The position numbers and the translations under genes were made by a program. The notes under the pieces were generated by a model that saw only the letters and a list, made by a program, of their open reading frames with translations, made no database searches and was not told the DNA's origin. This document shows positions 33,766-58,064 of a stretch of 64,000 nt of DNA, one piece after another. Origin of the DNA: an uncultured bacterium (GTDB lineage Bacteria; Latescibacterota; MWCZ01; CAZVGZ01); the NCBI GenBank assembly GCA_964627605.1, contig CAZVGZ010000001.1, positions 47,325 to 111,324 of the forward strand, written 5' to 3'. Within the stretch, counting starts at the first letter, position 1. Each line of letters starts with the position of its first letter.

Positions 33766-34126
33766 GCTTTGTTCCAGCCAGATAGGGTGGGGAGTGCTGT
33801 TGAGACAACGCAGTCGAACGTAGTAATTTATGTCGCCCCTGGTGTCGGGTCAATCAAAGTGCAGCCACGGCAAACGTGACAGACTCCGATGTCGCTCACC
33901 GTATCACTAGTAGAAGGCGAATTGATCGGGCTCGCAACATCTCCATCGACTACAGAGCTGGCGCGACTACGAAACAGCGGTTGGCCAACTGTGATCTCCG
34001 AACCCGCGTCTTGCAGCCCTGGCAGTCACTGGCTGCGATGGGACATAGGGCGTACGGAGCACATCACGCACCTATATTTTCTTGGTTGCCCACATACTTA
34101 CTCGACCAGAAAAAGGAAACTCATTG

Positions 34127-35794
34127 ATGTTGTCGGACTTGGACATTGCACAGCAAGCAACGCTCGCACCTGTAGAAGAGTGCGCCTCGAAACTCAACCT
34201 TGGCGTTGATGATCTGGAGTTTTACGGCCCATACAAAGCCAAGATATCTCAGCAGACAGTCGCCCGTGCGCAGTCGAACCCCACTGGCAAACTTGTCTTG
34301 GTCACCGCCATGAACCCGACCCCAGCCGGTGAGGGCAAAACGACTGTCGCCATCGGTCTGGCGCAAGCGCTGGACCATCTCGACAAAAAGACCGTCGTGG
34401 CTCTAAGGGAGCCGTCACTTGGGCCGGTTTTTGGCCGTAAAGGCGGCGCGACTGGTGGTGGTTACTCCCAGGTGCTGCCCATGGAGGACATCAATCTTCA
34501 TTTCACCGGCGACCTTCACGCCGTCACCGCCGCGCAAGATCTGTTGGTGTCGATGTTGGACAACCATCTTCATCACGGAAACGATCTGGGTATAGACTCG
34601 AGGACGGTCACACTCAAACGAGCGATGGACATCAACGACCGTGCGCTTAGAAACATCAAGGTTGGTTTGGGTGGTACCGCGAACGGCGTGCCCCGCGAGA
34701 CCGGCTTTGAGATCACCGCAGCGTCAGAAGTCATGGCGTGTGTCGCACTTGCAAGAGACATCTCTGACCTCAAGGAGCGACTCAGCAGGATCAGGGTCGC
34801 ATACACCACATCGGGTCGCCCTGTCGCCGCAAAAGACCTGGATGCCACCGGCGGGATGGCTGCGCTGCTCAAAGATGCTGTCAAACCCAACATCGTTCAG
34901 ACGATTGAGGGCACTCCAGCGTTGGTGCATATGGGGCCGTTCGGGAATGTGTCCACCGGCTGCAACAGCATTATCGCCACCAAACTTGGGATGCGGCTGG
35001 CTGACTATACCGTCACAGAGGCGGGCTTTGGCTCGGATCTAGGTGGGCAGAAGTTTATGGACATCATCTGCCGTGCTGGCAACTTTATGCCTGACGCTAT
35101 TGTGCTCGCCGCAACGGTCCGAGCGCTCAAGATGCACGGTGGCTGTGCCCAGCAGAAGCTTCATATCACCGAATGTGATCGCGTAGAACAGGGATTGCCA
35201 AACCTTCTTCAACACATCGACCACGTTAGTCAGTATGGCATCCCGGTGGTGGTAGCCATCAACCGTTTTACCAACGATAGCGACGAGGAGTTGGAGATCA
35301 TTCGAAAGGCTTGCGCCGAGATGGGCAAGCCGGTCGCTGAGGCGACTATCTGGGCTGACGGCGGCAAGGGCGGCGTCGAGCTGGCGAATGAGGTCCTCGC
35401 AGTCTGCGACCAGCCCTCGGAAGGCAAATATCTTTACAACATCGATCTACCGCTGCGCGAGAAGATAGAAACGATCTGTAAGAGAGTCTACGGTGCTGAC
35501 GGTGCCAATTTCTCAGCCAAGGCCGCAAAGAAGATCGACGCGGTGGAAGCTGAGGGGCTTGGTCGGATGCCGGTCTGCATCGCAAAGACGCAGGATTCGC
35601 TTTCCGACAAAAAGACTCTTCTCGGGCGACCAAAAGGGTTTACTGTACAGATAGCGGATGTTCGTGCTGCGACAGGGGCTGGCTATCTGATCGCGTATGC
35701 AGGCAGCATTATGACTATGTTCGGCTTTAGCAAAAGTCCTGCTGCCGTCAAAATAGATCTGAACGACGACGGCGAGATTGTAGGGCTGTTCTAG
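34127..35794 (+). CDS. fhs: Formate--tetrahydrofolate ligase
   Basis: ATG at 34127 preceded by an aaggaa SD. Product MLSDLDIAQQATLAPVEECASKLNLGVDDLEFYGPYKAKIS… with the P-loop TPAGEGKTT. Full-length FTHFS of about 555 aa. Confidence 0.9.
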   Translation: MLSDLDIAQQATLAPVEECASKLNLGVDDLEFYGPYKAKISQQTVARAQSNPTGKLVLVTAMNPTPAGEGKTTVAIGLAQALDHLDKKTVVALREPSLGPVFGRKGGATGGGYSQVLPMEDINLHFTGDLHAVTAAQDLLVSMLDNHLHHGNDLGIDSRTVTLKRAMDINDRALRNIKVGLGGTANGVPRETGFEITAASEVMACVALARDISDLKERLSRIRVAYTTSGRPVAAKDLDATGGMAALLKDAVKPNIVQTIEGTPALVHMGPFGNVSTGCNSIIATKLGMRLADYTVTEAGFGSDLGGQKFMDIICRAGNFMPDAIVLAATVRALKMHGGCAQQKLHITECDRVEQGLPNLLQHIDHVSQYGIPVVVAINRFTNDSDEELEIIRKACAEMGKPVAEATIWADGGKGGVELANEVLAVCDQPSEGKYLYNIDLPLREKIETICKRVYGADGANFSAKAAKKIDAVEAEGLGRMPVCIAKTQDSLSDKKTLLGRPKGFTVQIADVRAATGAGYLIAYAGSIMTMFGFSKSPAAVKIDLNDDGEIVGLF

Positions 35795-35930
35795 GGCACC
35801 CCTACCGATCAACGTCAGGGACGGATATACTTCGTCCTTCTTTACAGCACTGGCCTCACTCTCTAGTGGATTTTAGGCCATATCACTGTTATGGGGCATC
35901 ACGCCCCGTTCTTCATCTGGAGCGAAAAAC

Positions 35931-37073
35931 ATGTCAATGACCGACAGGGAGCGATTCAACGCCTGTATGCATTTTGAATCTGTGGATCACGTCCCTGACG
36001 AAGAGTTCGGCTACTGGGAAGAGGTGTTCCCGATCTGGCACGAGCAGGGCTTGCCAGAGTGGGTAACCGACAACGGCAAAGCCGATCAGTATTTCGGGTT
36101 CGCCACGAAAGGCGGGCTGCCGGGGAATATCGGCATCATGCCGGGATACAAGACGCGGGTGATCGAAGAGGATGATCGACGCATCTTGCTCGAAGACGGT
36201 GACGGAGCACTCAAAGAGGTAGCCAAAGACGGACACTCGACCATCCCGCGCTATCTCAGATTTCCCATCGAGACCAAGGACGACTGGAAGCGGTTTCGGG
36301 ACGAGCGGTTTGATTCTTCAAATCCCGATCGTCGCGACATCGATTGGGATTCTGTCATCAAACAGCATGAGGGGCACGACTATCCTCTGGGCCTCAACTG
36401 CGGAAGCCTGTTCGGATGGATACGCAACTGGATGGGTTTTGAAAATGTGAGCATCGCCTGCGTAGAAGACCCGGACTGGATAGAGGAGATGATGGACGCC
36501 ATCACCGACATGGTGCTGACGATGCTAGACGACACGATCTCCCACGCAGGTCACCTTGGCCTCGATTACGCCAGTTTTTGGGAGGATATGGCCTTCAACC
36601 ACGGCCCGATCATCTCCCCGGCGATGTTTGAGAGGTGGCTTACACCTCGCTACAAGAAGATTACGGACAGACTAAGGGAAGCTGGTGTCGATGTTTGCAT
36701 CGTTGACTGCGACGGGAACATCAATGTCGTAGTCGAACACTGGCTGGCTGGCGGGGTCAATGTCATGTTTCCGCTGGAAATCAGAGGTGGAACCGATCCT
36801 GTGACCATTCGTGAGAAATACGGCCACGATGTTCTCTTGGCTGGTGGAGTGGACAAGACTCAGCTCATTGAAGGCAAAGAGGCGATCCGTAAAGAGCTAA
36901 ACCGCATTGAGAGCACCATTGCCGACGGTGGATTCATCCCCCATGTCGATCACAGATGCCCACCGGACGTGACATACGACGACTACCTCTACTACGTAAA
37001 AACCAAGCGCGAGATGTTGGGCATTCCAGAGCCAGTCTCTTACGAAGATCGGAAAGCAGCGGGGTTGGTTTGA
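35931..37073 (+). CDS. UroD/MtaA-CmuA family methyltransferase-like protein, paralog 2
   Basis: 380 aa. The N-terminus MSMTDRERFNACMHFESVDHVPDEEFGYW is paralogous to the 1066-2169, 37165-38139 and 62050-63162 genes. Confidence 0.7.
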   Translation: MSMTDRERFNACMHFESVDHVPDEEFGYWEEVFPIWHEQGLPEWVTDNGKADQYFGFATKGGLPGNIGIMPGYKTRVIEEDDRRILLEDGDGALKEVAKDGHSTIPRYLRFPIETKDDWKRFRDERFDSSNPDRRDIDWDSVIKQHEGHDYPLGLNCGSLFGWIRNWMGFENVSIACVEDPDWIEEMMDAITDMVLTMLDDTISHAGHLGLDYASFWEDMAFNHGPIISPAMFERWLTPRYKKITDRLREAGVDVCIVDCDGNINVVVEHWLAGGVNVMFPLEIRGGTDPVTIREKYGHDVLLAGGVDKTQLIEGKEAIRKELNRIESTIADGGFIPHVDHRCPPDVTYDDYLYYVKTKREMLGIPEPVSYEDRKAAGLV

Positions 37074-37164
37074 GAGACAGTCGCTACTTGCCGAAACTGG
37101 GTTCCCTCGGCTGGAACAGTGGAGCCCAGCCAGGCTTTCCGCACAGTTTGACAGGTGAGATATC

Positions 37165-38139
37165 GTGACCAGCCGCGAGCGGTTCCTAAGGACACTATCC
37201 TACAGAGATGTGGATCGCCCACCCCTGTTCGACGACGGACTACGCGAAGATGTCTTGGAGCGCTGGAGCAATGAAGGGCTCCCTCAGGGCACCGATCTCG
37301 ACAGCCTTTTCGCCATCGACCGAAGGGAGGAGATTCAGCCAAACCTCCATCCTGCCAAATCTTTCTCCCCGCTATCCGAACCAGGGCAGCTAGATCGTTT
37401 TGAGGAGTTTTTTGTCTCTGACGGTCGTCAGCCTGAAGATTGGTCCCAGCGGGTCGAAGAGTTAAACGATCGCTCATGGACAGCAGGTCTGGTTGTTTGG
37501 CGAGGGTTGCTTCAGATGTTGGGGATCGGCGACTGGACGACTCTGGTTGATGTCCTCACCGGCATAAAAACCCAACCAGAGGTGGCTGAGTGCGCTCTGG
37601 GCAAGATAACCGATGTCATACTGGAGACTATCGAGCCGATGCTCCGGCAGGTGAGATTCGACTACGTCGTGTTCAGCGAGCCGATAGCAGGCAGCGATGG
37701 GACGGTGGTTAGTCCAGAGATGTATCGCCACTTCTGTGTTCACCATTGTCGTCGGCTTTCAGAGCTCGCCAAAAGGTGTGGTGTCTCGGTGATCGTTTTC
37801 AGGTCGTGGGGACGGTCTACGTCGCTACTGCCAGCGGCGATGGATGCCGGGATGAACGCTTTTTGGTGCGGTGAGACGGGTTTGGCCGGGGTGGACTACT
37901 CCCGGCTCAGGAGGCAGCACGGTCGCCGACTCAGGCTTATCGGCGGCGTGGATGTGCACTCTTTGGTTGAGAGCGAGAAGAAAACGGGCAGAGCTTTGGG
38001 CGATCTATTGCCGGAACTGTTGGCGGATGGCGGTTACATCCCGCTGGCCGACGGTAGAATTCGCGCCGAGGTGGGTTTCTCTGCCTACAGCCACTATAGG
38101 CAGCAACTCGAAAAGCTGTGCAACGCCGGAAAGAAGTAG
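37165..38139 (+). CDS. UroD/MtaA-CmuA family methyltransferase-like protein, paralog 3
   Basis: 324 aa starting MTSRERFLRTLSYRDVDRPPLFDD. Its stop lies 9 nt before the PTPS-like gene start. Confidence 0.7.
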   Translation: MTSRERFLRTLSYRDVDRPPLFDDGLREDVLERWSNEGLPQGTDLDSLFAIDRREEIQPNLHPAKSFSPLSEPGQLDRFEEFFVSDGRQPEDWSQRVEELNDRSWTAGLVVWRGLLQMLGIGDWTTLVDVLTGIKTQPEVAECALGKITDVILETIEPMLRQVRFDYVVFSEPIAGSDGTVVSPEMYRHFCVHHCRRLSELAKRCGVSVIVFRSWGRSTSLLPAAMDAGMNAFWCGETGLAGVDYSRLRRQHGRRLRLIGGVDVHSLVESEKKTGRALGDLLPELLADGGYIPLADGRIRAEVGFSAYSHYRQQLEKLCNAGKK

Positions 38140-38148
38140 TGAGGCGTA

Positions 38149-38562
38149 ATGCCAACCACCATCACCAAAAGTTTTCGCTTTGAGGCGGCGCACCGTCTGT
38201 ATGATCCGACTCTAAGCGACGACGAAAACACAGAGCTTTACGGCCCCTGTGCGCGGCTGCATGGTCATAGTTATGAGGTCCGGGTGACAGTCGGCTCCAA
38301 CGAGCTGCAACACGGCATGGTCATCGACTTCACTCATGTATCGGCGCTGGTAAATGAAGAGATCATAGGGAAATTCGATCATCAGGTCCTGAGCGATTTG
38401 CCGATACTCTCTGGTATTATTACGACCGCCGAGGAATTGGCGTCGTGGATATGGGACCAGCTAGCTCAAAAGTTCGACGATCGTGGTGTATTTTTGCGTA
38501 GAGTCGAAGTGTGTGAAACCGTCGATGCCTGGGCTACAGTGACAGCAATTACGGAACATTAG
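38149..38562 (+). CDS. 6-pyruvoyl-tetrahydropterin synthase / QueD-family protein
   Basis: 137 aa with the CxxxHGH zinc/catalytic motif (CARLHGHSYEV) and a PTPS-fold layout. The SD gagg lies 6 nt upstream; the gene is coupled to the preceding methyltransferase. Confidence 0.8.
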   Translation: MPTTITKSFRFEAAHRLYDPTLSDDENTELYGPCARLHGHSYEVRVTVGSNELQHGMVIDFTHVSALVNEEIIGKFDHQVLSDLPILSGIITTAEELASWIWDQLAQKFDDRGVFLRRVEVCETVDAWATVTAITEH

Positions 38563-38621
38563 GCACAGAAGGCGTCTAAGGTGTTGGCGTACTGCTGAGG
38601 GTGGGCGTACGCTTGACGTAT

Positions 38622-38641
38622 GGGTATTTGTTATTCGAAAG
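38622..38641. promoter_or_regulatory. AT-rich imperfect palindrome TTGTTA-ttcgaaag-TAACAA upstream of the corrinoid protein gene
   Basis: 6-bp inverted arms flanking a TTCGAA core, in an otherwise GC-rich spacer about 90 bp upstream of the 38729 ATG. Confidence 0.35.
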
Positions 38642-38728
38642 TAACAATGTTCGTGCCCAGGCCGGATTGTGGAGGTTTCCCGCTGGCTGGAAGGGCGTAA
38701 GCGCGCGCACGGCAAGGAGGTAACTCGC

Positions 38729-39367
38729 ATGGCCGATTATCAGGCGATTGCGGATGAAATCATCGTAGGCAACCGAACAAAAGTAGTTGAACTGGTAGAC
38801 GCCGCACTCGACGAAGGGGCGCCGGCCAAAGATATCTTGGATCATGGCATGATCACGGGAATGTCCGTGGTCGGCGAGAAGTTCAAGAACTGCGAGTTTT
38901 ATGTCCCCGAAGTGTTGGTGGCCGCCCGTGCGATGCACGCAGCGCTCGACGTACTTCGACCGCTACTCGCCGACTCCGATGTCCAGCCCGAAGGCACAGT
39001 GGCCATCGCCACCGTCAGAGGCGATCTCCATGACATTGGCAAAAACCTTGTGGCGATGATGCTTGAAGGCGCTGGCTTTGAGGTCGTTGACCTTGGTGTC
39101 GATGTCTCGCCTGAAGGTTTTGTCAATGCGGTCAAGGAGCAGGGCATTAACGCGATCTGCCTCTCGGCGCTTTTGACAACGACTATGCCCGCTATGCAGG
39201 ATACAGTGACTGCACTCGAAGCCGCTGGAATACGCGACACTGTCGCCGTGGTTATCGGCGGTGCTCCAGTGACGCAGAAATATGCCGACCAGATCGGTGC
39301 CGATGGCTACGCCGCCGATGCCGCCAGCGCAGTGGACGTAGTCAGAGAGGTCATGGTTAAGGCCTAA
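38729..39367 (+). CDS. Cobalamin-binding corrinoid protein of a methyltransferase system (MtaC/MtbC/MttC-like)
   Basis: ATG at 38729 with an aaggagg SD. N-terminal helical B12-binding-2 domain, then a Rossmann B12-binding domain with the DxHxxG motif (GDLHDIGKN) and …LSALLTTTMP…GGAP…. Confidence 0.85.
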   Translation: MADYQAIADEIIVGNRTKVVELVDAALDEGAPAKDILDHGMITGMSVVGEKFKNCEFYVPEVLVAARAMHAALDVLRPLLADSDVQPEGTVAIATVRGDLHDIGKNLVAMMLEGAGFEVVDLGVDVSPEGFVNAVKEQGINAICLSALLTTTMPAMQDTVTALEAAGIRDTVAVVIGGAPVTQKYADQIGADGYAADAASAVDVVREVMVKA

Positions 39368-39483
39368 CTCCACTTGAGCCAAATGGTCGCTGATTCCATC
39401 GATGAATGGGGTGCTCTCCAAAAAGGGGTGGCATCCCATTTCTCTTTGCTGTCGGTGGGTCCGCAGCGAAACCTGAGAGGGAG

Positions 39484-40539
39484 ATGAAAATGAGTGAGAC
39501 GGAGTACACGGTACATCCTCATTTAAGAAGTCGATGGGATGCGGTGGGGCGAAAGTTGAGATTTATCGCCACCACTAAAGGTGAATGGGAGACATGGCGA
39601 GAGGCGACTAGCGCGAAGCTTAAGGAACTGACCGGCTACAACACGATGGTCGGCAGTGAGTTGCAGCCCAAAATCACCGATGAAGTGGTATTCGACGACT
39701 ACATCCGTCAGCGTGTTGAGATAAACACAGAACCCGATGTGGTAATGACGCTCTATGTCATGATTCCAACCACGGGCACCCCGCCATTCCCAGCCGTCTT
39801 GGCCCCCCACGGCCACGGCAGCGGAGGGAAGTACTCCGTCGCAGGGATAACCGATCACGGCGACGACATCGCAAACGCCGTCAAACACTACAACTACGAC
39901 TACGGAATCCAATTCGCCCGTGCTGGTTTTATCACTTTCTGCCCAGACGCCCGAGGGTTCGGAGAGCGGCAGGAGGAGGGTGCTAAAAACAGCATTCTCA
40001 ACTCATCATGTCAGCTGATAAACAACATGGCGCTTCCATTGGGACAGACGGTAACGGGCATGTGGGCGTGGGACCTGCATCGACTGATCGACTATGTAGA
40101 GATGCGTGACGACGCCAGGTCGGAGGGCGTCGGGTGCGGCGGTCTATCCGGGGGAGGGCTCCAGACGCTATGGGCGTCAGCACTTGATGAGCGGATTACG
40201 TGCTCGGTCGTCAGTGGTTATATGTACGGCTATCGCGAGTCGCTTCTGGACCTTCACGGCAACTGCTCATGCAACTATGTGCCTCATCTCTATGAATACG
40301 TTGACATGGGCGACATCGCCGCTCTGATCGCCCCGAGACCGCTCCTTGTGGAGACAGGCGACCAGGACCCGCTCAATGGTGCCAGCGGAGTCGCCAACAC
40401 CGAATCGCAAGTAGACATCGCCTGTCGCGCCTTCCGCCTCTTGGGCACAGAGGATTCACTATCACACGACATATTTGAAGGCGAACACCGCTGGAATGGC
40501 GTTGAGGCGATCCCGTGGATGGTCAAACATCTTCAGTAG
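39484..40539 (+). CDS. Alpha/beta-hydrolase fold esterase (acetyl-xylan-esterase/dienelactone-hydrolase-like)
   Basis: ATG at 39484 (MKMSETEY) with a gagggag SD. Nucleophile elbow GLSGGG (GxSxG). About 350 aa. Confidence 0.65.
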   Translation: MKMSETEYTVHPHLRSRWDAVGRKLRFIATTKGEWETWREATSAKLKELTGYNTMVGSELQPKITDEVVFDDYIRQRVEINTEPDVVMTLYVMIPTTGTPPFPAVLAPHGHGSGGKYSVAGITDHGDDIANAVKHYNYDYGIQFARAGFITFCPDARGFGERQEEGAKNSILNSSCQLINNMALPLGQTVTGMWAWDLHRLIDYVEMRDDARSEGVGCGGLSGGGLQTLWASALDERITCSVVSGYMYGYRESLLDLHGNCSCNYVPHLYEYVDMGDIAALIAPRPLLVETGDQDPLNGASGVANTESQVDIACRAFRLLGTEDSLSHDIFEGEHRWNGVEAIPWMVKHLQ

Positions 40540-40743
40540 GTGACAGATTGATCGCTTACATAAGATCGCTTGTGTGCCAGTTGGAACCCCATCAACCGCA
40601 GAACACTAGTCGAAGGGCTCGATGGGTTAGGCGGCCACCTCTACCTCGGAATTACGAGAGGTCGCCGCTGCATAGTCGGCTGCAGGCTGGACATGAGGCA
40701 CATCAACCACTAGCTTTTGGTCGATCGATTTATAAAGAAAGCC

Positions 40744-42492
40744 ATGCCGGGAAACCAGAGCGCTATGTCAAACGAAGGGTCAGCTATCAGCAGCATAGAA
40801 TCCCCTCATATAGATCGTGCGAGCATCCCTACGGAAAGCTCATCTTCGGCTGCCACAAGGGTTCTGTTTGTCTACCCGCCAGTGCGTCTAAATCAGCCTC
40901 CCAGGTTTCCGCCGTTTGGGATGATGTATCTCGGCGCTGCGCTCGAAGAGGCCGGGATACATGTGGAGTTGATAGACATCAACCTGCTGCGAGTGCCGTT
41001 TGAAGAGGTGATGGCGATCATCGAAAGTCGCCAGTTCGACGTGATCGGCATCGGTGGCATGACGACTGTCTACTACTATATAAAGGCGCTCTCGCTACAT
41101 CTGAAAAAACGTTTCCCAAATATACCCATTATGGGCGGCGGGAGCGCTGTGTCCGCTTCTCCCGATCTGGTTTTGACAAATACCGGTATTGATGTGGCGT
41201 GTATAGGGGAAGGCGAGCCGATAATTGTTCAACTCGTTCGCCACCTTTCAGAAGGCCAAGACCTCGACGACATTCCAGGAATCGCCTATCGACTTGCTGA
41301 CGGATCGATCCGCCACACCGCTCCGCGACCTCGCTTTCTTGATATCGACAGTCTACCCTTTCCGGCCTACCATCTTGTGGACCTGGAACCCTATATCAGC
41401 AACAACATTAAAGTGAACGGGCGAAGCCCACAGATCCAAGCGCGTGTAGAGCAGCTGGGGATCGACCCAGTGAAAGCAAGCAGGCCGATACCACTCTTCA
41501 GCAAACGAGGCTGCCCTTTCGGGTGCAACTTCTGCTACCGCAATTTCGGGAGGAAGACAGCCCAGGCGTCGGTCGATTCCGTGCTCGACCACATGAGCAT
41601 GTTGGAGGAGAACTACAACACGGTGTTCTTCGTCTTTTCTGATGAGATATTCAACGTCAGCAAGCGATGGGTGACGGAATTTTGCGAGCGGATAATAGCT
41701 GAAGACCGCAAATACATCCTCGCTACCAATAACGCCATGCGTGCGAATACGGTCGACAGAGAGATGTTGGTGATAATGAAAAAGGCCGGATTTTGCCAGA
41801 TAGCGATCGGAGTCGAATCTTTCTACGATCCTACCCTCAAAGCCATGGAAAAGAACCAGACGGCTGAGACGGTGGCAAACGCCCTTCGATTGGCGCGCGA
41901 GTGCGACATGTTTACAAATGGGGCACAGCTCCTGTTCGGGTACGAAACCGACGGACGCGAGTCGATGGAAGCCAACGTCAAAGCGCTGACAGAGTTGGGA
42001 TTCTCGTCGGTTGGGTTCGCAATCCCATGCCCCTACCCGGGCACAGCCCTGTACGATATAGCCCAAAAGCGCGGTCTGCTCGGAGACGAAGAGGGGTGGT
42101 TGCTTGAGCTGGCGGATCGGGACATCTCAGACCGGATGGTGAACCTCTCTAAAATGTCCGATGGTGAGATCCTTCGGCACATCGAGTGGGGAAACGATCA
42201 GCTGGAGATCAACCTGATCCGCAAGAAGCACCCCATCGTAGCATGGATTTTGGACTACCTTCAACCTGCGCTAAGGAGGCTTGGCGGTCTAAACGTCACC
42301 GCCCTCTGGACTCAGGTGTGGTCCATTTTGCGTTACCAGCGGCGGCTTGTAAGGCCCGAAAGCGTCTATTTTGACACAGGCCACGACCGTACAGCGCTTC
42401 GCGATGAGGTATTCGACCTCCTTGAGGAGTTGGACAGGGAGAAAAACGAGACTCAGTCACAAGAAGTGCGTCGGTTGGAACCGCTCACCTAG
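40744..42492 (+). CDS. B12-binding domain-containing radical SAM protein
   Basis: N-terminal B12-binding Rossmann region (RVLFVYPP…FGMMYLGAALEEAGIHVELIDIN…DVIGIGGMTT), then a radical SAM motif CPFGCNFC (CxxxCxxC) and elp3-type core. The start codon is uncertain; 40717 and 40765 are alternatives. Confidence 0.8.
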   Translation: MPGNQSAMSNEGSAISSIESPHIDRASIPTESSSSAATRVLFVYPPVRLNQPPRFPPFGMMYLGAALEEAGIHVELIDINLLRVPFEEVMAIIESRQFDVIGIGGMTTVYYYIKALSLHLKKRFPNIPIMGGGSAVSASPDLVLTNTGIDVACIGEGEPIIVQLVRHLSEGQDLDDIPGIAYRLADGSIRHTAPRPRFLDIDSLPFPAYHLVDLEPYISNNIKVNGRSPQIQARVEQLGIDPVKASRPIPLFSKRGCPFGCNFCYRNFGRKTAQASVDSVLDHMSMLEENYNTVFFVFSDEIFNVSKRWVTEFCERIIAEDRKYILATNNAMRANTVDREMLVIMKKAGFCQIAIGVESFYDPTLKAMEKNQTAETVANALRLARECDMFTNGAQLLFGYETDGRESMEANVKALTELGFSSVGFAIPCPYPGTALYDIAQKRGLLGDEEGWLLELADRDISDRMVNLSKMSDGEILRHIEWGNDQLEINLIRKKHPIVAWILDYLQPALRRLGGLNVTALWTQVWSILRYQRRLVRPESVYFDTGHDRTALRDEVFDLLEELDREKNETQSQEVRRLEPLT

Positions 42493-42744
42493 CCTATTGG
42501 CGAACGGGGTATTTAGCACACCTGCGCTACCGAATCTGTATTCGGGGCAGGGAGGCCCGGTGGCAGTGCCTGGACCGGTCAACTGGCATGGTGCGAATGG
42601 TAGAAGTCGCCTGAGCTAGAGCGACTGATTTCGTCGGTGGGCCACCATTGCGCCTGAAAACTCTGTTCGTCGCCACGTGTCCGCTCATCACGACTGGGGG
42701 TCAGAAGCTGCTCAGCGGTCAAGGAGATCGCCGAGTACACCCTG

Positions 42745-42954
42745 GTGGTCGATTCGTTGGAACTGAGATACCGCGTAGGAAGCGCCACCGGTGAGGTGAT
42801 AATCACTACAATCGGACACCCGACATTCGCACAGGATGACATCTTCGGCGAACCGGTCGACTTGGCGTTCCAGATGCTGGGACGCGCCAAGTGCGTTGAT
42901 GCTGGCTACTGCCTATGTCCCACAACTCTGGCCGAGACAGGACAGCGCGTGTAG
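42745..42954 (+). pseudogene. Remnant of a class III adenylate/guanylate cyclase catalytic domain (C-terminal about 60 aa only)
   Basis: Product …RYRVGSATGEVIITTIGHPTFAQDDIFGEPVDLAFQMLGRAKC… matches the cyclase pattern vGihtGevv.G.iG....ytvfGdtVNlAaRle. An upstream in-frame stop lies at 42655-42657, with no N-terminal cyclase sequence before it. It sits inside a 630-bp non-coding stretch. Confidence 0.45.
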
Positions 42955-43119
42955 ACCGGCTCAGCGGGATGTATTTTAGACAGGCGACTTCTGTACGCCG
43001 TTTGCTCGTAGCGGCCAAACCTGCCATATGGCTCCCGCCAACGCCCACCCGTAATCCAACCGAGACCTGCCGCCGACATTCAAGTGACTCAGTCTGGTGT
43101 ATGAGGGTTGTTGTTGTTT

Positions 43120-43995
43120 CTAACCCCGCAACCCCAACTCCTTGAGAATCACCAACCAGTTGTCAAGGCAGAGGCGCGTGGCGAATTCGCCGGATTCGGA
43201 GAAAGCAGCGCCGCCAGGGCGGTTGAGCTGGTCCTCAGAGAGCGATTGAGGCCGCCAGTGGGTCTCTAGGGAGACATAACCCTCGTAGCCGTCGTGGATC
43301 AGCGCTTGGAGTTGACCAGGCATGTCCACCGCGCCATCGCCGATGGGGGTGCACTCCGGTTCGCCGGTTTCGGCGTTTAGATGGGCGTCTTTGAGGTGCA
43401 TGTGCGGCATTCGGTCCTTAATCGCCTCGTAGCCGTCAGGATAGGGTATCTCTCCAGCAGTGTCGAAAATGTCATTGGCTGGGTCCCACATTGCGCCTAC
43501 GCGGTCGCTGTCGAGGTCTGACAAGAACCGGGCCAACACCCGGCCGTTGCCAACCATAGTGCTGGCTTCGTTTTCAATCGCCAGCGTCTTGTTATAGCGC
43601 TCCAAGATTTCCAATGGCTCATCAAATGCCGACAGAATCTCGCCCCACCGGTCGTCAGGGTTGCCTTTGAGCCAAAAGGTGAATCCGCGTATGATGTCGC
43701 AGTCGAAAACATCGGCCAGCTTGCAGCAGCTCTCAAGAATTGCGAGATGTTCGGCACGCTCGGCTGGGGAATCTATGTCGCACTTGTAGAACGGTGCCGC
43801 GATGCTGCATATCGCCAGCTTGGAGCCTTTGAGCATCTCCCGCATGTCGCGGATATCACGGTTTTCCAACTCGTGCGGCGGCTTGTCCCACGCCGAGCGC
43901 ACCTCCAACCCGTCTAACCCATACTCCTGAGCCAACTCCACCGCTGCACCAAAATCTTGCGAAACCTCGTCGGTGAATACACCCAATTTGAACAT
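43120..43995 (-). CDS. Sugar phosphate isomerase/epimerase (xylose isomerase-like TIM barrel), second paralog
   Basis: Start at the ATG at 43995 (MFKLGVFTDEVSQDFGAAVELAQEYGLDGLEV) with an aggag SD. Carries …LAIENE… and …HLKD… motifs. Confidence 0.75.
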   Translation of the reverse strand: MFKLGVFTDEVSQDFGAAVELAQEYGLDGLEVRSAWDKPPHELENRDIRDMREMLKGSKLAICSIAAPFYKCDIDSPAERAEHLAILESCCKLADVFDCDIIRGFTFWLKGNPDDRWGEILSAFDEPLEILERYNKTLAIENEASTMVGNGRVLARFLSDLDSDRVGAMWDPANDIFDTAGEIPYPDGYEAIKDRMPHMHLKDAHLNAETGEPECTPIGDGAVDMPGQLQALIHDGYEGYVSLETHWRPQSLSEDQLNRPGGAAFSESGEFATRLCLDNWLVILKELGLRG

Positions 43996-44153
43996 GAAAC
44001 AACTCCTGCGTGTGATGGGGAACACATACATGAAATTGTACGGGCGCGAAGGTTAGACTAGCAAGTCGAAGCTTCCTTGACCCGCCGCTGGGTTTTGGAT
44101 ACACTACGTCACGTAAATCCAAAGAGGCTCCCATCGGCTGTTATCCGGGTCCA

Positions 44154-46862
44154 TTGATGCTTGACGAGTCGTTCGCAACCGCCCTGTCGCACCTACCTGT
44201 GGCGGTGCTGACTGATCCCGCCGAATGTTTGGTCTACTCAGGCGACGCCTCCCTCTGTCAGGGGCTTCCCGCCGCAGTCATTCTGCCTGAAAACCTCGAA
44301 GAGATCTCCGCCGCGATGAAACTGGCGGCTGAGCATGGCGTCTGCATTGTCCCCCGTGGCGCTGGCACCGGCTTGGTTGGTGGCGCGGCACCGAGCGATC
44401 AGGACGTTATAATCGCCCTCAATCGAATGCGCTCAATTGATGACAGCCACATTGCTGATGGGTTGCTCTTGGCCTCCCCTGGCGCAACCGTTCAGGAGTT
44501 GGAGACCACAGCAGCGCAGAGCATGTGGCATTACGCACCGGACCCAGGCAGCGGACAGACTTGTACCGTTGGCGGCACGGTCTCTACTAACGCCGGTGGC
44601 CCCCACGCCTGGACGGGCTATTCGACTAGGGATGCGGTTTCCCAGATCACGATGGTGTTGGCGGACGGCAGCAGTACGAGGCTCGGCGGCCTGACGAGCG
44701 AATGGCCGGGAGTCGATCTTGCGGGGTTGGTGTCAGGGAGTGAGGGCACTCTGGGAATCATCGCAGGTGCTGCCTTGCGGTTGTCGAGGCCGCAGCAGGC
44801 GTGTGCAGGGCTCGTGGCAGTTTTTGATGAGCTAGTGGACGCGGTAAGTGCAGGAGTGGCGCTGAGCGGCGACGGCGTGGATATCGATGCGATCGAAGTG
44901 GTGGACGCGCTCTTGGTAGACACGGTCAACCCTGAGAGGCGAGGGCTTCCTTCATCTGGTAGTCACGCTGTACTGCTCGCTCAAGTGTGCGGCAGCAGTG
45001 ATAGCCTCACTGGTGCCCTTGACCGCATTGCGCTTCTCTGTGGGCGTGAAGGAGCGCTCAATATGGGCAGGCACACCGGGGAAGACGGTGGGCGTCAGAT
45101 GTGGGATGGTTGGCGTAAGACGATAGGATCGGTCGGTCGGCTGGCCGCGCCCACAAGGTGGGTGGGTTTGGCGACGAAACCGAGCAAGCTCGTGGAGACT
45201 ATAGAGGGGTTGCAGAAGCTGGCGCGCGATCATCAGCGGGAGGTGGGTTGGCTCATCCACGCTGGCGACGGAGGGATTCAGGCCGCAGTGCCTACGACAC
45301 TTGATGCGGCCAGCGCCGACCCCTTTGTGGAGCAGATGTGGCGCCTATGCAGTTCGTTTGGCGGCGTTCCCACCGGTGAGCACGGGGTTGGCAGGCTCAA
45401 TAAGGCTGCGCCAGCCATTGTGCTTTCAGAAGCAACCTTCGAAGCAAAGCGGGGAATAAAGCGGATTTTTGATGACCGGGTGTGCCTAAATCGTGGTACT
45501 TGGCCTCCAGAGCGGGCCGACCGGCGGGTTGATAGGTCTGACGAGGCGGTTGAGTACCGCACGGTGGTACACCTCACTGAGTTGATTAGCTCGGTCGCGG
45601 CGTCCAGCGAGGCAACCGCAGTAAAGCCGAATTCAGCGAAGGAGGTCGCCAGAACGCTGAGAGCCGCAGCATCCGACGGCGTTTCACTCGCTGTGCATGG
45701 TACCCCGAGCGACCGCGTGGTGGACATACAGTTAGATCGACTCTCAGAGATCGGCCCATGGAACCCAGAAGATCGTGCGATAACTGTGGGGCCTGGCGTC
45801 AAAGTTTGTGACCTTGATAAACTCGTCAGGTCGCTGGGTTGGAGGTGGCCTGTAGATCCTCCAGCTGTGATGGGGGAAACCGTTGGGCAGGCCCTGGCGT
45901 ACAGGCGCACCGGCCCGCAGAAACTTGGTTGGGGTGACATACGTGAGCATGTTTTGGGTGTTGAGCTCGCAACCACGCGCGGCGACCTGATCCGATGTGG
46001 TGGCCCAACGATACGCCACAGGGCTGGCTATGACCTGAGAGCGCTCGCTGTGGGAGCACGCCACAGTTTGGGCGTAATTACCGAAGCGACACTGCGATTG
46101 AGGCCACGGCCAGATGCCCAAGGGGCGCTAATCGCTGTGTTCGACACGGTGGATGGTTGTGGGCTCGCAGCCAAGACGTGGCTGAAGTTGGGTGGAGGCA
46201 CCGCTTCTTTGCACCCGACAGCGGTTGTGGTGATGTCGGTCTCAGGTGAACTCACACTTGACAGAGATTGGCAGATGGTGCTTGATGCCGACCGATATAC
46301 CGCAGTCGTGGGGTTTGAAGGTACTGAGGAGTCTGTCAAAACTCAGCTAAACTCCGCCGCCGCTGTGGGGCGAACATTCGAAATGACAGACCAGGTGCTC
46401 CTTAAGGAGAGTCGTGCCGACAATGTGTGGACCGCGATATCGATGATGCGCGGGACCGAAGGTGTCGATTGGCGTACGAATACGCGGGCGCGGTTCCATA
46501 TACCGACCTCCCTCGGCGTCTGGCTCTTGGAAGTTCTCCAGAATCGGCTGCCTGACAACAGCGAGGCCGAGATTGTCGGGGATGTCGGTTGCGGAGTCGT
46601 CGAGCTGGTTATAGGTCATGACGACGACGGCTGGTTGGCGGGTTGGCTCTACGATCAGGGCGAACTGGTGGTTGAGGATGGTGGCTGGTTGGAAGTTGTA
46701 GATGGCCCCTATTTAGGAACTGTAATCGCCGACGAAGACCCTGTAGCTACGCGTTTGGCATGTGACCTCAAAAGTGAGATGGACCCATCGGGTACTCTTC
46801 CTGAATGGAAACACACCGCCCCCAGTCTGCCTGCTTCTGACAGCTCTTCAGACACCGAATGA
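44154..46862 (+). CDS. FAD-linked oxidase with two tandem FAD-binding (PCMH-type) halves (GlcD/GlcE-like fusion)
   Basis: 902 aa. The N-terminal half has the FAD-binding domain (VCIVPRGAGTGLVGGAAP…). The second half repeats a FAD-binding domain (SLAVHGTPSDRVVDIQLD…). A BBE/GlcD-like cap follows each half. Confidence 0.7.
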   Translation: MMLDESFATALSHLPVAVLTDPAECLVYSGDASLCQGLPAAVILPENLEEISAAMKLAAEHGVCIVPRGAGTGLVGGAAPSDQDVIIALNRMRSIDDSHIADGLLLASPGATVQELETTAAQSMWHYAPDPGSGQTCTVGGTVSTNAGGPHAWTGYSTRDAVSQITMVLADGSSTRLGGLTSEWPGVDLAGLVSGSEGTLGIIAGAALRLSRPQQACAGLVAVFDELVDAVSAGVALSGDGVDIDAIEVVDALLVDTVNPERRGLPSSGSHAVLLAQVCGSSDSLTGALDRIALLCGREGALNMGRHTGEDGGRQMWDGWRKTIGSVGRLAAPTRWVGLATKPSKLVETIEGLQKLARDHQREVGWLIHAGDGGIQAAVPTTLDAASADPFVEQMWRLCSSFGGVPTGEHGVGRLNKAAPAIVLSEATFEAKRGIKRIFDDRVCLNRGTWPPERADRRVDRSDEAVEYRTVVHLTELISSVAASSEATAVKPNSAKEVARTLRAAASDGVSLAVHGTPSDRVVDIQLDRLSEIGPWNPEDRAITVGPGVKVCDLDKLVRSLGWRWPVDPPAVMGETVGQALAYRRTGPQKLGWGDIREHVLGVELATTRGDLIRCGGPTIRHRAGYDLRALAVGARHSLGVITEATLRLRPRPDAQGALIAVFDTVDGCGLAAKTWLKLGGGTASLHPTAVVVMSVSGELTLDRDWQMVLDADRYTAVVGFEGTEESVKTQLNSAAAVGRTFEMTDQVLLKESRADNVWTAISMMRGTEGVDWRTNTRARFHIPTSLGVWLLEVLQNRLPDNSEAEIVGDVGCGVVELVIGHDDDGWLAGWLYDQGELVVEDGGWLEVVDGPYLGTVIADEDPVATRLACDLKSEMDPSGTLPEWKHTAPSLPASDSSSDTE

Positions 46863-47299
46863 ATCACGACACTATGGAATCCAATCGACCAGATTATGGC
46901 CAGCAGTTTGGGCCTCTAACCGCAGAAGTCAGGCTTGAGCCTCTAGGTCCGGGCAAACCGAACGAAAAGGCCGCCGAGGTCTTTGGGAGAATCAGCGTCA
47001 AAACGGCGTTTGATGGAGTAGCGGTGGCCGACAATGCGATGGCGCAGGCGGGTGTTTGGCTCTACCACGGCTATCTCGATGAATCCCATCGGCTATGCCA
47101 GAGTATTGACACCCCCACTGGAAGCTACTGGTACGGTATCATGCACCGCCGCGAGCCGGATGCATCCAACGCCGCCTACTGGTTTGGCCGGGTAGGGGAT
47201 CACCAAATATTCGGCGCACTCACGACGAGCTCCGCATCTTTAGCAGCAGAGATGGGCACCGACGACGAACCAAATTTTCTTCGAGATCAGGTCCATTGA
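46859..47299 (+). CDS. Hypothetical protein, translationally coupled to the FAD oxidase
   Basis: 146 aa. Its ATG overlaps the oxidase stop (ATGA at 46859-46862). No recognised motifs and no Cys cluster. Confidence 0.45.
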   Translation: MNHDTMESNRPDYGQQFGPLTAEVRLEPLGPGKPNEKAAEVFGRISVKTAFDGVAVADNAMAQAGVWLYHGYLDESHRLCQSIDTPTGSYWYGIMHRREPDASNAAYWFGRVGDHQIFGALTTSSASLAAEMGTDDEPNFLRDQVH

Positions 47300-47488
47300 G
47301 ATCCCTTCGAGATCATCTCTCTGTGCGAGGCGGCCCGTGTCGGCACGAACTCGGCGAACGAAGGGCTCTGTGTCAGGGTGCCGCAGTTGGAGTGGGAACT
47401 TCTTTTCGATCACTGCTACAGCGCGACTGTAGGGCGATAGTGGAGTCCCCGACAGCTAAACAGATAGCTACACGATAGGAGACGAACT

Positions 47489-48493
47489 GTGGACAGAGTC
47501 CGAGCGGGACTGATTGGGTGCGGGCCCATGGGCCGAGATTTGATTTCGCAGGCGAAAAGCTTGTCAGATATCGCCGAAGTGGTCGCCGTCTGTGACATCG
47601 ACGCGGCTCTTGCGAAGAAAACCGCGTTCGAGCTTGGCAGTGAGGCTATGACCAGCTCTGCCGAACTCATCGCCAGGGACGACGTGAATGCCCTTTTTGT
47701 GGCGACTCCGGGATACCTGCACGCCGAACCGGTTTTGGCGGCGGCTGGAGCGGGCAAACATGTATTTGTCGAAAAGCCGATGGCGCTTCGTGTTGAGGAT
47801 TGCCAGGCTATGATCGATGCTGCCGATTCCAACGGTGTTAAACTGATGGTGGGCCAAGTGCTTAGGTACACCGACGTGTTTCAGTTCGCCAGAGACCACA
47901 TAGCAGCAGGTGATTTGGGAGAGGTATTCGCTGCACGGATAACAAGGACCGGCAGTGGCTGGGGAAGTTGGGGCCGCTCCTGGCGCACGAAAAAAGAGCA
48001 GAGCGGTGGGGTACTGTTTGAGTTCAGCGTCCACGAGTTGGACTTCATGCGGTGCTGTCTAGGCGACGCCGAGAGCGTTTATGCCGTGGAGAGTCATCGC
48101 GTCCACCACGATCTCGACTACGCCGACACCTGTTTTCTAACGATCAGATTCCGCAGTGGCGGCCTTGGTCAGTTGGCAGCAGGATTGGCGGATCATGTAG
48201 GAACATATCGTGGTGAGATTCTGGGCACCGATGGCGCGATCCATTTCGACAAATCAGCCGGGAGTGTGCGCTACCGGTTTGGAGATCAAGAGACCCAGAG
48301 TATGGATATCAACGCCCTGGAAACGCCGTCAGCCGTGAATCGAGAGGTCAGGGAGTTCATAGAAGCGGTTGGAGGCGACGGAGCGGTGACTATTCCAGGA
48401 AAAGAAGGTATGGCTGTTGTGGAGATCGCGTCAGGCGCTGGCGTCTCGGCGCAGACCGGCGAGGTGGTGCCGCTGACAGTGAAGACCAGGTGA
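47489..48493 (+). CDS. Gfo/Idh/MocA family NAD(P)-dependent oxidoreductase
   Basis: 334 aa. N-terminal Rossmann motif (RAGLIGCGPMGRD) and …EKPMA… motif. Confidence 0.85.
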   Translation: MDRVRAGLIGCGPMGRDLISQAKSLSDIAEVVAVCDIDAALAKKTAFELGSEAMTSSAELIARDDVNALFVATPGYLHAEPVLAAAGAGKHVFVEKPMALRVEDCQAMIDAADSNGVKLMVGQVLRYTDVFQFARDHIAAGDLGEVFAARITRTGSGWGSWGRSWRTKKEQSGGVLFEFSVHELDFMRCCLGDAESVYAVESHRVHHDLDYADTCFLTIRFRSGGLGQLAAGLADHVGTYRGEILGTDGAIHFDKSAGSVRYRFGDQETQSMDINALETPSAVNREVREFIEAVGGDGAVTIPGKEGMAVVEIASGAGVSAQTGEVVPLTVKTR

Positions 48494-55793: not shown

Positions 55794-56567
55794 TCACTCC
55801 GGCGTCACGTACGCCGCTGTGATCCCCCCATCGGCTGTAAATGTCGCACCGGTGACATAGCTGGATTCGTCGGATGCCAGGAACAGCGCCGCTTTAGCCA
55901 TCTCCGAGGCTTCACCGAACCGACCCATGGGCACATGGACCAGCCGCCGCTGCTTCTTCTCTTCGGTGTCGAGGAACGCCATCAGAAGCTCTGTCTTGAG
56001 CGGGCCTGGGCAGAGGGCGTTGACGCGGATGTTTTCGCGGGCATGTATCACCGCAAGTTCGCGGCTCATGGCAAGCACGCCGCCCTTGCTGGTGGTATAG
56101 GCCAACTGTGGTGTCGCCGCTCCTACAATAGCAACGAACGACGCGGTGTTGACGATAGAACCGCCTCCTGCCCGGCGAATAGCTGGTATCCCATATTTAC
56201 ACCCTAAATAGACACCCTTGAGGTTGACGCTCATAGTCAGATCCCAAACGTCTTCCTCAGTCGCTTGCGAGTCGCCATCATCGCCGTGCATGATGCCAGC
56301 GTTGTTTAACAGCACCGACAGCGATCCGAACCTTTTTTCGGCGACATCCACCATCTTCTCGCATTCGTCGGCCTTAGAGACATCCGCATGCGCGAAAACA
56401 GCACTACCACCCTGGCTCTCAACGAGCTCGACCGTCTCCTCTCCTGCGTCATCGTTCACATCTACCACCACCACCCGCGCTCCCTCTCTCGAAAAAAGCA
56501 GCGCTGACTCCCGCCCGATACCGCTGCCTGCGCCGGTAATGAGAGCCACTCTCTCCTCTAACCGCAT
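55794..56567 (-). CDS. Short-chain dehydrogenase/reductase (SDR)
   Basis: 257 aa. TGAGSGIGR cofactor motif, NNAG, and catalytic YTTSK (YxxxK). Confidence 0.85.
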   Translation of the reverse strand: MRLEERVALITGAGSGIGRESALLFSREGARVVVVDVNDDAGEETVELVESQGGSAVFAHADVSKADECEKMVDVAEKRFGSLSVLLNNAGIMHGDDGDSQATEEDVWDLTMSVNLKGVYLGCKYGIPAIRRAGGGSIVNTASFVAIVGAATPQLAYTTSKGGVLAMSRELAVIHARENIRVNALCPGPLKTELLMAFLDTEEKKQRRLVHVPMGRFGEASEMAKAALFLASDESSYVTGATFTADGGITAAYVTPE

Positions 56568-58057: not shown

Positions 58058-58064
58058 GTCAAAA

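Follow-up and report, generated by a model that had tools for sequence, protein, structure and literature searches.

A PTPS/QueD-family gene conserved beside a corrinoid protein gene in diverged metagenomic lineages

Introduction

The COG0720 proteins, which include PTPS and QueD, normally form pterin precursors of queuosine, biopterin or folate. They are a classic case of mis-annotated paralogues, and their functions have been derived from gene context. The subject of this study is PTPS1, a gene for such a protein on a stretch of 64,000 nucleotides (nt) of contig CAZVGZ010000001.1 from an uncultured Latescibacterota bacterium. We refer to this whole 64-kb stretch as the window. PTPS1 lies there between URODb, a gene of the URO-D superfamily, and the gene for a corrinoid protein. 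COG0720 subfamilies cluster with the genes of the pterin pathway that they serve, and paralogues operating in the folate pathway provide a precedent (PMC5041015). Published signatures assign Cx3HGH to QueD/PTPS-I, Cx5HGH to PTPS-II, ExxHGH to PTPS-III and CExxHGH to the I/III type, and PTPS-V is still listed with unclear function (PMC5041015). The published signature of PTPS-IV is FGPAQ. QueD2, a low-zinc paralogue, has a Cx4HGH motif, a C-terminal extension and a length of 190-300 amino acids (aa), Cx3HGH being the motif of QueD (PMC9894224).

Among the characterized members, QueD of E. coli (4NTK/4NTM) is like PTPS1 in its T-fold, its Cx3HGH motif, its three histidine ligands, its Asp-His dyad and its glutamate anchor. 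PTPS1 differs from it by an 8-10-residue ‘LSDxEN’ loop, as found in animal PTPS, by His55 and by a TIGR03367 score that falls below the cut-off. In genomic context the clade of PTPS1 also differs from QueD, in that it is never found beside queC, queE or queF and always beside a corrinoid protein and folate enzymes. With the animal and cyanobacterial PTPS-II proteins (1B66, 3I2B), which give its best PDB match, PTPS1 shares the N-terminal loop; however, these proteins have Cx5HGH where PTPS1 has Cx3HGH, and human PTPS falls in another bacterial clade, with folE and SDR genes as neighbours. PTPS-III and PTPS-I/III, which act in the FolB bypass, are likewise COG0720 proteins that cluster with folate-related genes. 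PTPS1 lacks their diagnostic glutamate, and its neighbours use folate rather than synthesize it (folK/folP).

Methyl transfer through a corrinoid protein to tetrahydrofolate has been described for a number of three-component systems, such as the O-demethylases Odm/Mtv/Mto, the glycine betaine system MtgBCA and the MtgC/MtgD/MetF2 proteins of Ruegeria pomeroyi. Common to these systems and to the loci described here are a corrinoid protein with a DxHxxG motif, URO-D candidates for the methyltransferase and, at several of the related loci, a Pterin_bind protein and a dedicated MetF. In the MtgC/MtgD/MetF2 hub, a bidirectional pterin-binding methyltransferase has its own MetF, and, as here, several paralogous methyltransferases appear to use one conserved corrinoid protein (PMC12478193). 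The described three-component systems differ in that they contain no PTPS/QueD-family gene, whereas one is present here and no RamA-type activase was seen at any locus. In addition, the URO-D proteins found here are very remote from the characterized ones of those systems.

In full-text literature searches, we found no publication connecting PTPS/QueD proteins with corrinoid proteins or corrinoid methyltransferase systems. B12-binding, URO-D, MTHFR and Pterin_bind proteins are not among the neighbours listed in published surveys of PTPS gene neighbourhoods, and a pterin synthase is not mentioned in the papers on the mlp cluster (PMC10418091) and on MtgBCD (PMC12478193). An earlier reading of the window, made from the sequence only, had held that a PTPS-fold protein in a corrinoid operon was undescribed, and the searches, which found no link between the two families, agree. 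What we report combines an enzyme family and a type of methyl-transfer system that are each known; their conserved association is undescribed in the searched literature.

Results

The PTPS gene accompanies one corrinoid-protein orthogroup

A first homologue search with PTPS1 returned one identical copy, one relative at 67% and one at 50% identity, with all others at 45% or less. In locus L001, the 50% relative is followed immediately by a corrinoid protein with 71% identity to that of the window, and then by MetV (DUF5981), MTHFR and a Pterin_bind methyltransferase. The 67% relative is found on TARA contigs, where it overlaps the stop codon of a gene for a URODb-like protein (80% identical to URODb over the C-terminus). 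Synteny was then assessed by a metagenome scan anchored on the corrinoid protein, which gave 26 loci, and by subsequent tblastn searches for PTPS. All of the related loci are metagenomic, with taxonomy known for one sub-lineage only.

A PTPS gene (38-51% identity) is located directly upstream in all seven lineages whose corrinoid protein shares 70% identity or more with that of the window and for which upstream DNA is available (L001, L019, L020/L030, L022, L023, L024/L025 and the window itself). The corrinoid proteins of PTPS-bearing loci are 70-73% identical to that of the window. At loci with a corrinoid protein of 57% identity or less, a PTPS gene was found upstream in 0 of 13. The association of PTPS with the corrinoid orthogroup has a Fisher p of about 1e-5, calculated on collapsed lineages that are not phylogenetically independent. 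Two further lineages came from look-ups that started with PTPS, so that the adjacency, usually with overlap of the URO-D stop and the PTPS start, is seen in at least nine diverged lineages in all. These observations support the view, already expressed in the sequence-only reading, that the PTPS gene belongs with the corrinoid system and does not adjoin it by chance. A scan of genome contigs with PTPS1 found only two relatives (41-42% identity), which are from Leptonemataceae and Bacteroidales and both lack corrinoid genes.

The recurring gene order is GFO/IDH/MocA oxidoreductase, URO-D-like protein, PTPS, corrinoid protein, MetV, MetF (MTHFR) and Pterin_bind methyltransferase. Three loci on long contigs (P0130, P0137 and P0138) have the same order with a 4-nt overlap of the URO-D and PTPS genes, and one of the three continues with FTHFS (formate-tetrahydrofolate ligase), a further URO-D gene and a xylose-isomerase-like barrel; at P0130, FTHFS lies beside the operon. 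A GFO/IDH/MocA gene heads the operons of L019 and L030, and a gene of the same Pfam family occupies this position in the three long-contig loci. Orthologues of URODb (37-40% identity; 80% over the C-terminus in L016) are found immediately before PTPS in L016, L020, L022, L024, L025, L030, L044 and P0130/P0137/P0138; L001 and L019 carry PTPS without an adjacent URODb. The Pterin_bind methyltransferase (MT-II) is present in L001, L024, L029 and P0130/P0137/P0138. The constant neighbours of PTPS represent four tetrahydrofolate-dependent functions, namely MetF, MetV, the Pterin_bind methyltransferase and FTHFS.

Two loci show local irregularities. The PTPS homologue of L019 (about 2482-3114) is out of frame past approximately residue 88, through a frameshift or an assembly error, with the GFO, corrinoid protein, MetV and MTHFR genes intact. 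In one lineage, a PF02522 aminoglycoside-3-N-acetyltransferase-family gene, an unexpected operon member, is located between a URO-D paralogue and MetV/MTHFR (L020 3846-4874, L029 1517-2662).

On the + strand of the window, the genes follow in the order FTHFS, URODa, URODb, PTPS1, corrinoid protein, CE15-like hydrolase and B12-binding radical SAM protein (Table 1). The GFO gene of the window sits 9 kb downstream of PTPS1. It is 51-52% identical, over its full length, to the GFO genes of L019 (1163-2335) and L030 (5312-6298) and belongs to the same orthogroup. It follows that the window holds this system in rearranged form, with a functional cluster that probably extends over about 34082-48493.

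PTPS1 retains the fold and catalytic residues of the family

PTPS1 matches the Pfam PTPS profile PF01242 (E 8.5e-37, 126 bits, cut-off 22.4) over profile positions 1-119 of 121. Its AF2 monomer model has a mean predicted local distance difference test score (pLDDT) of 96.6, and Foldseek aligned the model over its full length to rat/human PTPS (1GTQ/3I2B) with a template modelling (TM) score of 0.88. The corresponding score against E. coli QueD 4NTK was 0.79, or 0.90 when normalized to the target. In both sequence and fold, the nearest solved relatives of PTPS1 are mammalian PTPS (E 1.2e-18), with E. coli QueD close behind; the mammalian enzyme ranks first because of the shared ‘LSDxEN..(Y/F)G.C’ loop. 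Alignment with the characterized enzymes shows that PTPS1 keeps the three zinc ligands (H15, H38 and H40), the catalytic cysteine (C34), the Asp-His dyad (D77-H78), T93 and E95, and the glutamate that anchors the pterin ring (E123). Across 42 sequences that include the whole clade, H15, C34, H38, G39, H40, H78, T93, E95 and E123 are invariant and D77 is nearly so. Profile, fold and catalytic residues each identify PTPS1 as a member of the PTPS/QueD superfamily.

The motif C34-A-R-L-H-G-H conforms to Cx3HGH, which is the QueD motif, and by the published motif signatures PTPS1 is classified as QueD-type. It is not PTPS-II, as three residues rather than five separate Cys from HGH, and its motif is not that of PTPS-III, as residue 35 is Ala here and A/S/N/Q/G in the clade, never Glu. 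PTPS1 (137 aa) and a second paralogue in the window, PTPS2 (145 aa), both have Cx3HGH and so do not have the characteristics of QueD2. Against the NCBIfam QueD model TIGR03367, PTPS1 scores 80.3 bits, which is under the equivalog cut-off of 89.25. The 64-kb window has no queC, queE, queF or folE gene, and none lies within ~10 kb at any related locus either (~20-kb neighbourhoods). The motif would thus place PTPS1 in QueD proper, the score and the lack of association with que genes would not, and we leave its membership undecided. The signature comparison covered PTPS-I, II, III, I/III and QueD2, and the PTPS1 clade may equal PTPS-V.

The gene itself is as the sequence-only reading described it: its coordinates and the residues C34-A-R-L-H38-G-H40 confirm a 137-aa open reading frame (ORF) with a CxxxHGH motif, 9 nt past the URO-D gene. 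The stop codon (TAG) of URODb occupies 38137-38139 and the ATG of PTPS1 begins at 38149. That reading had also placed the Shine-Dalgarno (SD) sequence of PTPS1 inside the upstream gene. This is true of a weaker purine run alone (GGAAAGAAG, 38128-38136), which is the sole SD-like stretch within the 3' end of URODb; the best match, GAGG (38141-38144), falls between the two genes, in the 9-nt spacer that follows the URODb stop. With respect to composition, PTPS1 has a GC content of 0.51 (0.57 at third codon positions), as compared to 0.54-0.57 (0.63-0.66) for its neighbours. Horizontal transfer was considered on these grounds, and a GC content slightly below that of the neighbours proved not to be informative.

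The PTPS1 clade is distinct and under purifying selection

A profile search with the PTPS sequences of the loci retrieved about 23 clusters at 176-225 bits, followed by a drop to 146 bits or less. The PTPS1 clade was monophyletic in neighbour-joining trees, which were calculated on short proteins. Its sister clade holds the QueD of Desulfomicrobium (D. norvegicum), which is encoded in a queD-radical SAM (queE)-queC-queF operon and is a genuine QueD. Human PTPS falls with a clade rich in Planctomycetota, in which the genes adjoin GTP cyclohydrolase I and an SDR. Residues specific to the PTPS1 clade are D19, P33, W100 and the segment L53-x-H55-G-M, with position 55 being Thr in other QueD/PTPS proteins. 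His55 is probably near the active site, as the Met two residues further on (Met57 here) lines the pterin pocket in the rat PTPS structure. One cluster of 15 members in the clade is annotated as Candidatus Latescibacterota, and all named members come from this phylum; Latescibacterota proteins of the clade include HPC45429.1, HPU85262.1 and OQB39444.1, and the NCBI name of the cluster members is ‘6-carboxytetrahydropterin synthase’. In a comparison of L024 with L025, PTPS has a dN/dS of 0.076, which indicates purifying selection; the values are 0.015 in the case of the corrinoid protein and 0.17 in that of URODb. Conserved synteny, a separate clade and purifying selection, taken together, make simple hitchhiking unlikely.

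The adjoining URO-D gene encodes a remote member of its superfamily

The gene directly upstream of PTPS1 is the third of four URO-D-family ORFs in the window, in agreement with its designation as paralogue 3 in the sequence-only reading. Its description as a corrinoid methyltransferase stands as far as the superfamily match is concerned; the methyltransferase label is inferred from fold and context, with no close characterized relative, and is applied in that sense to all of the URO-D proteins discussed here. The AF2 model of URODb (pLDDT 92.7) has UroD (TM 0.6-0.7) and MtaA (about 0.6) as its top Foldseek matches, and Foldseek does not separate methyltransferase from decarboxylase for this protein. 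Against the MtaA and CmuA models, URODa and URODb score 23-33 bits (URODb itself 23-26), with cut-offs of 235-244, and the best PDB sequence match of URODb has an E value of 0.085.

Alignments of the URODb family show about a dozen conserved Arg and no conserved His or Cys, with none at the positions of the MtaA zinc ligands. This pattern suggests an anionic substrate and the lack of a zinc site, unlike the thiol-methylating UroD-type enzymes of PMC10418091. Methyltransferases of the UroD superfamily normally need zinc or a good leaving group (PMC10418091). The URODb family is large and taxonomically broad, with at least 498 matches. Its members were considered as general partners of PTPS, and this was rejected, as the homologues of Anaerolineaceae, Deltaproteobacteria and Poribacteria stand alone with no PTPS or corrinoid protein nearby. 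A Poribacteria origin of one lineage was suggested by Poribacteria proteins in the URODb cluster and was likewise rejected, the gene being solitary in those metagenome-assembled genomes.

The four URO-D paralogues occur within 64 kb of an otherwise carbohydrate-catabolic region, and His and Cys are found at the MtaA positions in that of 62050-63162 (URODc) only. A URODc-like gene is present 3' of the corrinoid protein in L019/L020. URODc may be a thiol methyltransferase and is possibly another methyltransferase served by the same corrinoid protein.

The corrinoid protein and the preceding spacer

The DxHxxG motif of the corrinoid protein reads D-L-H-D-I-G and is identical in the window and L001. 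Among NCBIfam models the protein is MtgC/MtbC-like, with scores under the cut-offs. Its ORF is open from GTG 38669, and the most likely start is ATG 38729, because AAGGAGG precedes this codon and the orthologues begin with MAQL or MADY there. Given this start, the spacer between PTPS1 and the corrinoid gene is 166 nt. The corresponding spacer is 166 to ~350 nt in most loci, and in L020/L030 it carries a URODa-like gene (25% identical to URODa).

A structured RNA or riboswitch in this spacer was considered and rejected, since neither the window nor L001 has an Rfam match at gathering thresholds; in the 64-kb window as a whole, no Rfam family reached threshold. Between lineages, no sequence conservation was found in the spacer except for the SD sequence. 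The folding energy of the spacer is no better than that of shuffled sequences (z = -0.75), and sites resembling promoters or terminators are no more frequent than expected by chance. The 352-nt spacer of L001 contains a 58-nt direct repeat (10527-10584 and 10640-10697; 79% identical, 113 nt apart), which is missing from the window and the other lineages.

Other genes of the window

The features of the window are collected in Table 1. The CE15-like hydrolase that follows the corrinoid protein is found solely in contigs of the window population, which occurs in oxygen-deficient-zone samples (ERZ234911xx), and is a lineage-specific addition; its type hints at substrates such as 4-O-methyl-glucuronate. 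The B12-binding radical SAM gene is also a lineage-specific addition, with none in the loci of other lineages. The FAD oxidase gene, which is followed by an overlapping ORF of 146 aa with no family match, has kept its place next to the cluster on every contig from the window population. A xylose-isomerase-like barrel (- strand) also lies downstream of the radical SAM gene, as do the FAD oxidase and GFO genes. The remainder of the window is devoted to carbohydrate metabolism and contains GH2, two FGGY kinases, sulfatases, a gluconolactonase, and SSF and MFS transporters. A Pterin_bind MT-II was not found in the 64-kb window, the only related functions nearby being the URO-D paralogues and FTHFS. 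The annotated neighbours include no reductive activase of the RamA/RACE type, either in the window or at any related locus, and an activase may be encoded elsewhere in the genome.

Table 1. Coordinates and assignments of the features discussed
Feature	Coordinates	Strand	Assignment and evidence
Fourth URO-D paralogue	1066-2169	-	Pfam URO-D E 1.1e-14; beside GH2, FGGY kinase and SSF transporter
FTHFS	34082-35794	+	Formate-tetrahydrofolate ligase, first gene of + strand cluster; PF01268 E 5.6e-244
URODa	35931-37073	+	URO-D superfamily, 380 aa, candidate corrinoid methyltransferase; Pfam URO-D E 3.1e-12
URODb	37165-38139	+	URO-D superfamily, 324 aa, directly upstream of PTPS1; Pfam URO-D E 1.1e-8
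PTPS1	38149-38562	+	QueD-lineage PTPS-family T-fold zinc enzyme, 137 aa, ATG start
Corrinoid protein	38729-39367	+	B12-binding_2 PF02607 E 4.3e-18; B12-binding PF02310 E 4.5e-28; DxHxxG
CE15-like hydrolase	39406-40539	+	Alpha/beta hydrolase, glucuronoyl-esterase-like; Abhydrolase_7 E 3.6e-14; GCE_fung E 7.7e-11
B12-binding radical SAM protein	40717-42492	+	Pfam B12-binding and Radical_SAM; best NCBIfam match BchE-like, far under cut-off
FAD oxidase	44154-46862	+	902 aa; two FAD_binding_4 stretches and FAD-oxidase_C
GFO/IDH/MocA oxidoreductase	47489-48493	+	Pfam match; orthologue of the gene heading the conserved operon elsewhere
PTPS2	57620-58057	+	145 aa; PF01242 E 2.3e-22; C-R-H-V-H-G-H; outside corrinoid cluster
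URODc	62050-63162	-	URO-D superfamily; Pfam E 3.3e-19; HVHCHG and ILCP provide His/Cys at MtaA zinc-ligand positions

PTPS2 had been noted before as a second CxxxHGH paralogue, and its PF01242 match and C-R-H-V-H-G-H motif confirm this. It is 22% identical to PTPS1. An apparent lack of the catalytic His was an artefact of the MAFFT alignment, and alignment to QueD2 with HMMER shows the LDHK dyad; this alignment to QueD2 is weak (E 0.0065), and the spacing is Cx3HGH. PTPS2 is divergent to a region on the - strand (55794-57307), where a Peptidase_C26 gene (gamma-glutamyl-hydrolase-type amidotransferase) and an SDR adjoin it, and PTPS2 and the Peptidase_C26 protein could form a separate pterin/folate-related pair. 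The proposed coupling of PTPS2 to an MBL hydrolase is doubtful. The MBL gene, which overlaps PTPS2 at its end, is broken into two reading frames: 58035-58760 encodes a signal- or transmembrane-like N-terminus and Lactamase_B_2 up to about profile position 120, and 58869-59156 encodes the C-terminal part. The split gene is either a pseudogene or the product of an assembly frameshift.

Discussion

PTPS1 combines the fold and the intact active site of its family with membership in a distinct clade, purifying selection and strict synteny with one corrinoid orthogroup. The reading that we favour, with a probability of roughly 40%, is that PTPS1 is a pathway-dedicated pterin enzyme, fixed in a corrinoid/tetrahydrofolate methyl-transfer module and inherited together with it. 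Because every pterin-recognition residue is retained, PTPS1 would still be a pterin enzyme, one that binds a 2-amino-4-oxo-pterin and performs PTPS/QueD chemistry. Its putative substrate is 7,8-dihydroneopterin triphosphate, the side-chain diol/ketone of which would be bound by zinc, with Cys34 as the base and Glu95/Glu123 responsible for C6 protonation and ring anchoring, and the product would be a 6-substituted tetrahydropterin. This product may then supply or tailor the tetrahydropterin/folate co-substrate of methyl transfer, rather than serve housekeeping queuosine synthesis. A pterin-type methyl acceptor, as proposed in the sequence-only reading, is not needed, since the conserved partners MetV/MetF, Pterin_bind and FTHFS are ordinary tetrahydrofolate enzymes.

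Several points weigh against such a dedicated role. A Cx3HGH motif without the Glu of ExxHGH makes a FolB-bypass function disfavoured, to judge from the published signatures. The sister clade contains a genuine QueD, and the clade of PTPS1 could be the QueD orthologue of this lineage. It would also be unusual for a cofactor-supply enzyme to be translationally coupled to what appears to be a high-flux catabolic methyltransferase. The named members are all Candidatus Latescibacterota, and the synteny may reflect vertical inheritance within one phylum. Finally, we know of no other role of such a pterin in methyl transfer.

It seems rather unlikely that PTPS1 is instead the housekeeping QueD of Latescibacterota-like bacteria, acting in queuosine/preQ0 synthesis and retained by vertical descent after an ancestral landing in the operon, with no link to methyl transfer. 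The Cx3HGH motif with its complete catalytic set, the NCBI naming, the single candidate phylum of the named members and the Desulfomicrobium queD-rSAM(queE)-queC-queF operon in the sister clade are all consistent with a QueD of this kind, and a spacer of 166-350 nt in most loci implies that PTPS and the corrinoid protein need not share a translational unit. However, at least nine lineages, with PTPS identities as low as 38%, keep the gene in this position, with overlap of the URO-D stop and PTPS start, and the adjacency follows one corrinoid-protein orthogroup exactly. The NCBIfam score below the equivalog cut-off (80.3 versus 89.25) and the clade-specific His55 also argue against a QueD proper, as do the lack of que genes nearby at any locus and the presence of a second Cx3HGH paralogue in the window. 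A tRNA-modification gene would, moreover, be odd inside an apparently substrate-specific operon.

A distinctly less probable reading is that PTPS1 activates the substrate of URODb: its zinc site would no longer act on a pterin and would instead bind an oxidized methylated substrate, such as an alpha-keto methyl ether, and stabilize the enediolate leaving group. The GFO/IDH/MocA oxidoreductase would make the keto ether from a methylated sugar or inositol, Co(I) of the corrinoid protein would take the methyl group, and URODb would serve for corrinoid docking. Translational coupling of URODb and PTPS in nearly all loci fits this proposal, as do the chemistry of PTPS, a zinc-assisted enolisation of a vicinal diol/ketone, and the absence of His/Cys at the MtaA zinc positions in URODb and its family, the methyltransferases of the UroD superfamily normally needing zinc or a good leaving group (PMC10418091). 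A GFO/IDH/MocA orthologue is conserved as part of the operon, and sugar genes abound in the window and related loci (DHDPS-type aldolase, xylose-isomerase-like barrels, CE15-like esterase, GH2 and kinases). Yet the pterin-recognition residues E123, T93 and E95 are invariant, which is unexpected for a changed substrate, L001 and L019 carry PTPS without an adjacent URODb, and the URODb homologues of Anaerolineaceae, Deltaproteobacteria and Poribacteria are solitary.

Carried to its end, this proposal describes a new corrinoid demethylase, which we regard as more doubtful still. The GFO enzyme would oxidize a methylated sugar or inositol beside the methoxy carbon, the PTPS-like zinc would activate it, and a zinc-less URO-D protein would pass the methyl group to Co(I) and thence to tetrahydrofolate. 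To our knowledge, there is no known corrinoid-dependent mechanism for demethylation of aliphatic carbohydrate methyl ethers, and our literature searches returned no corrinoid-dependent demethylation of this type. If true, it would constitute an anaerobic demethylation route for aliphatic (carbohydrate) methyl ethers and the first non-pterin function in COG0720.

Very improbable is a PTPS1 that makes a separate, non-folate tetrahydropterin (6-pyruvoyl- or 6-carboxy-), the side chain of which the GFO protein may reduce and which URODb would use to shuttle methyl groups to and from the corrinoid protein: the intact PTPS site and the conserved oxidoreductase do mirror the PTPS-plus-reductase logic of biopterin synthesis, a related Planctomycetes clade does lie beside GTP cyclohydrolase I and an SDR, and the URO-D-type MtoA is reported by Kurth and co-workers (2021) to methylate a tetrahydropterin (tetrahydromethanopterin), but the operon contains Pterin_bind, MetF/MetV and FTHFS, which need true folate, the motif is Cx3HGH and not the Cx5HGH of PTPS-II, no folE is nearby, and URODb homologues are widespread without PTPS. 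The data do not separate these four readings of the role of PTPS1.

The tie of one subfamily to a corrinoid protein and tetrahydrofolate enzymes gives COG0720 a context that is not mentioned in the published neighbourhood surveys consulted. The motif rule, together with the NCBI annotation, would label this subfamily as QueD/6-carboxytetrahydropterin synthase. The carriers are uncultured, polysaccharide-degrading Latescibacterota-like bacteria of low-oxygen ocean water, sediments and digesters, the methyl-group metabolism of which is hardly known. In these bacteria, a conserved fourth component implies a step beyond the scheme of MT-I, corrinoid protein, MT-II and activase, and this extra step could be the supply of a pterin, a new acceptor, or the activation of a substrate.

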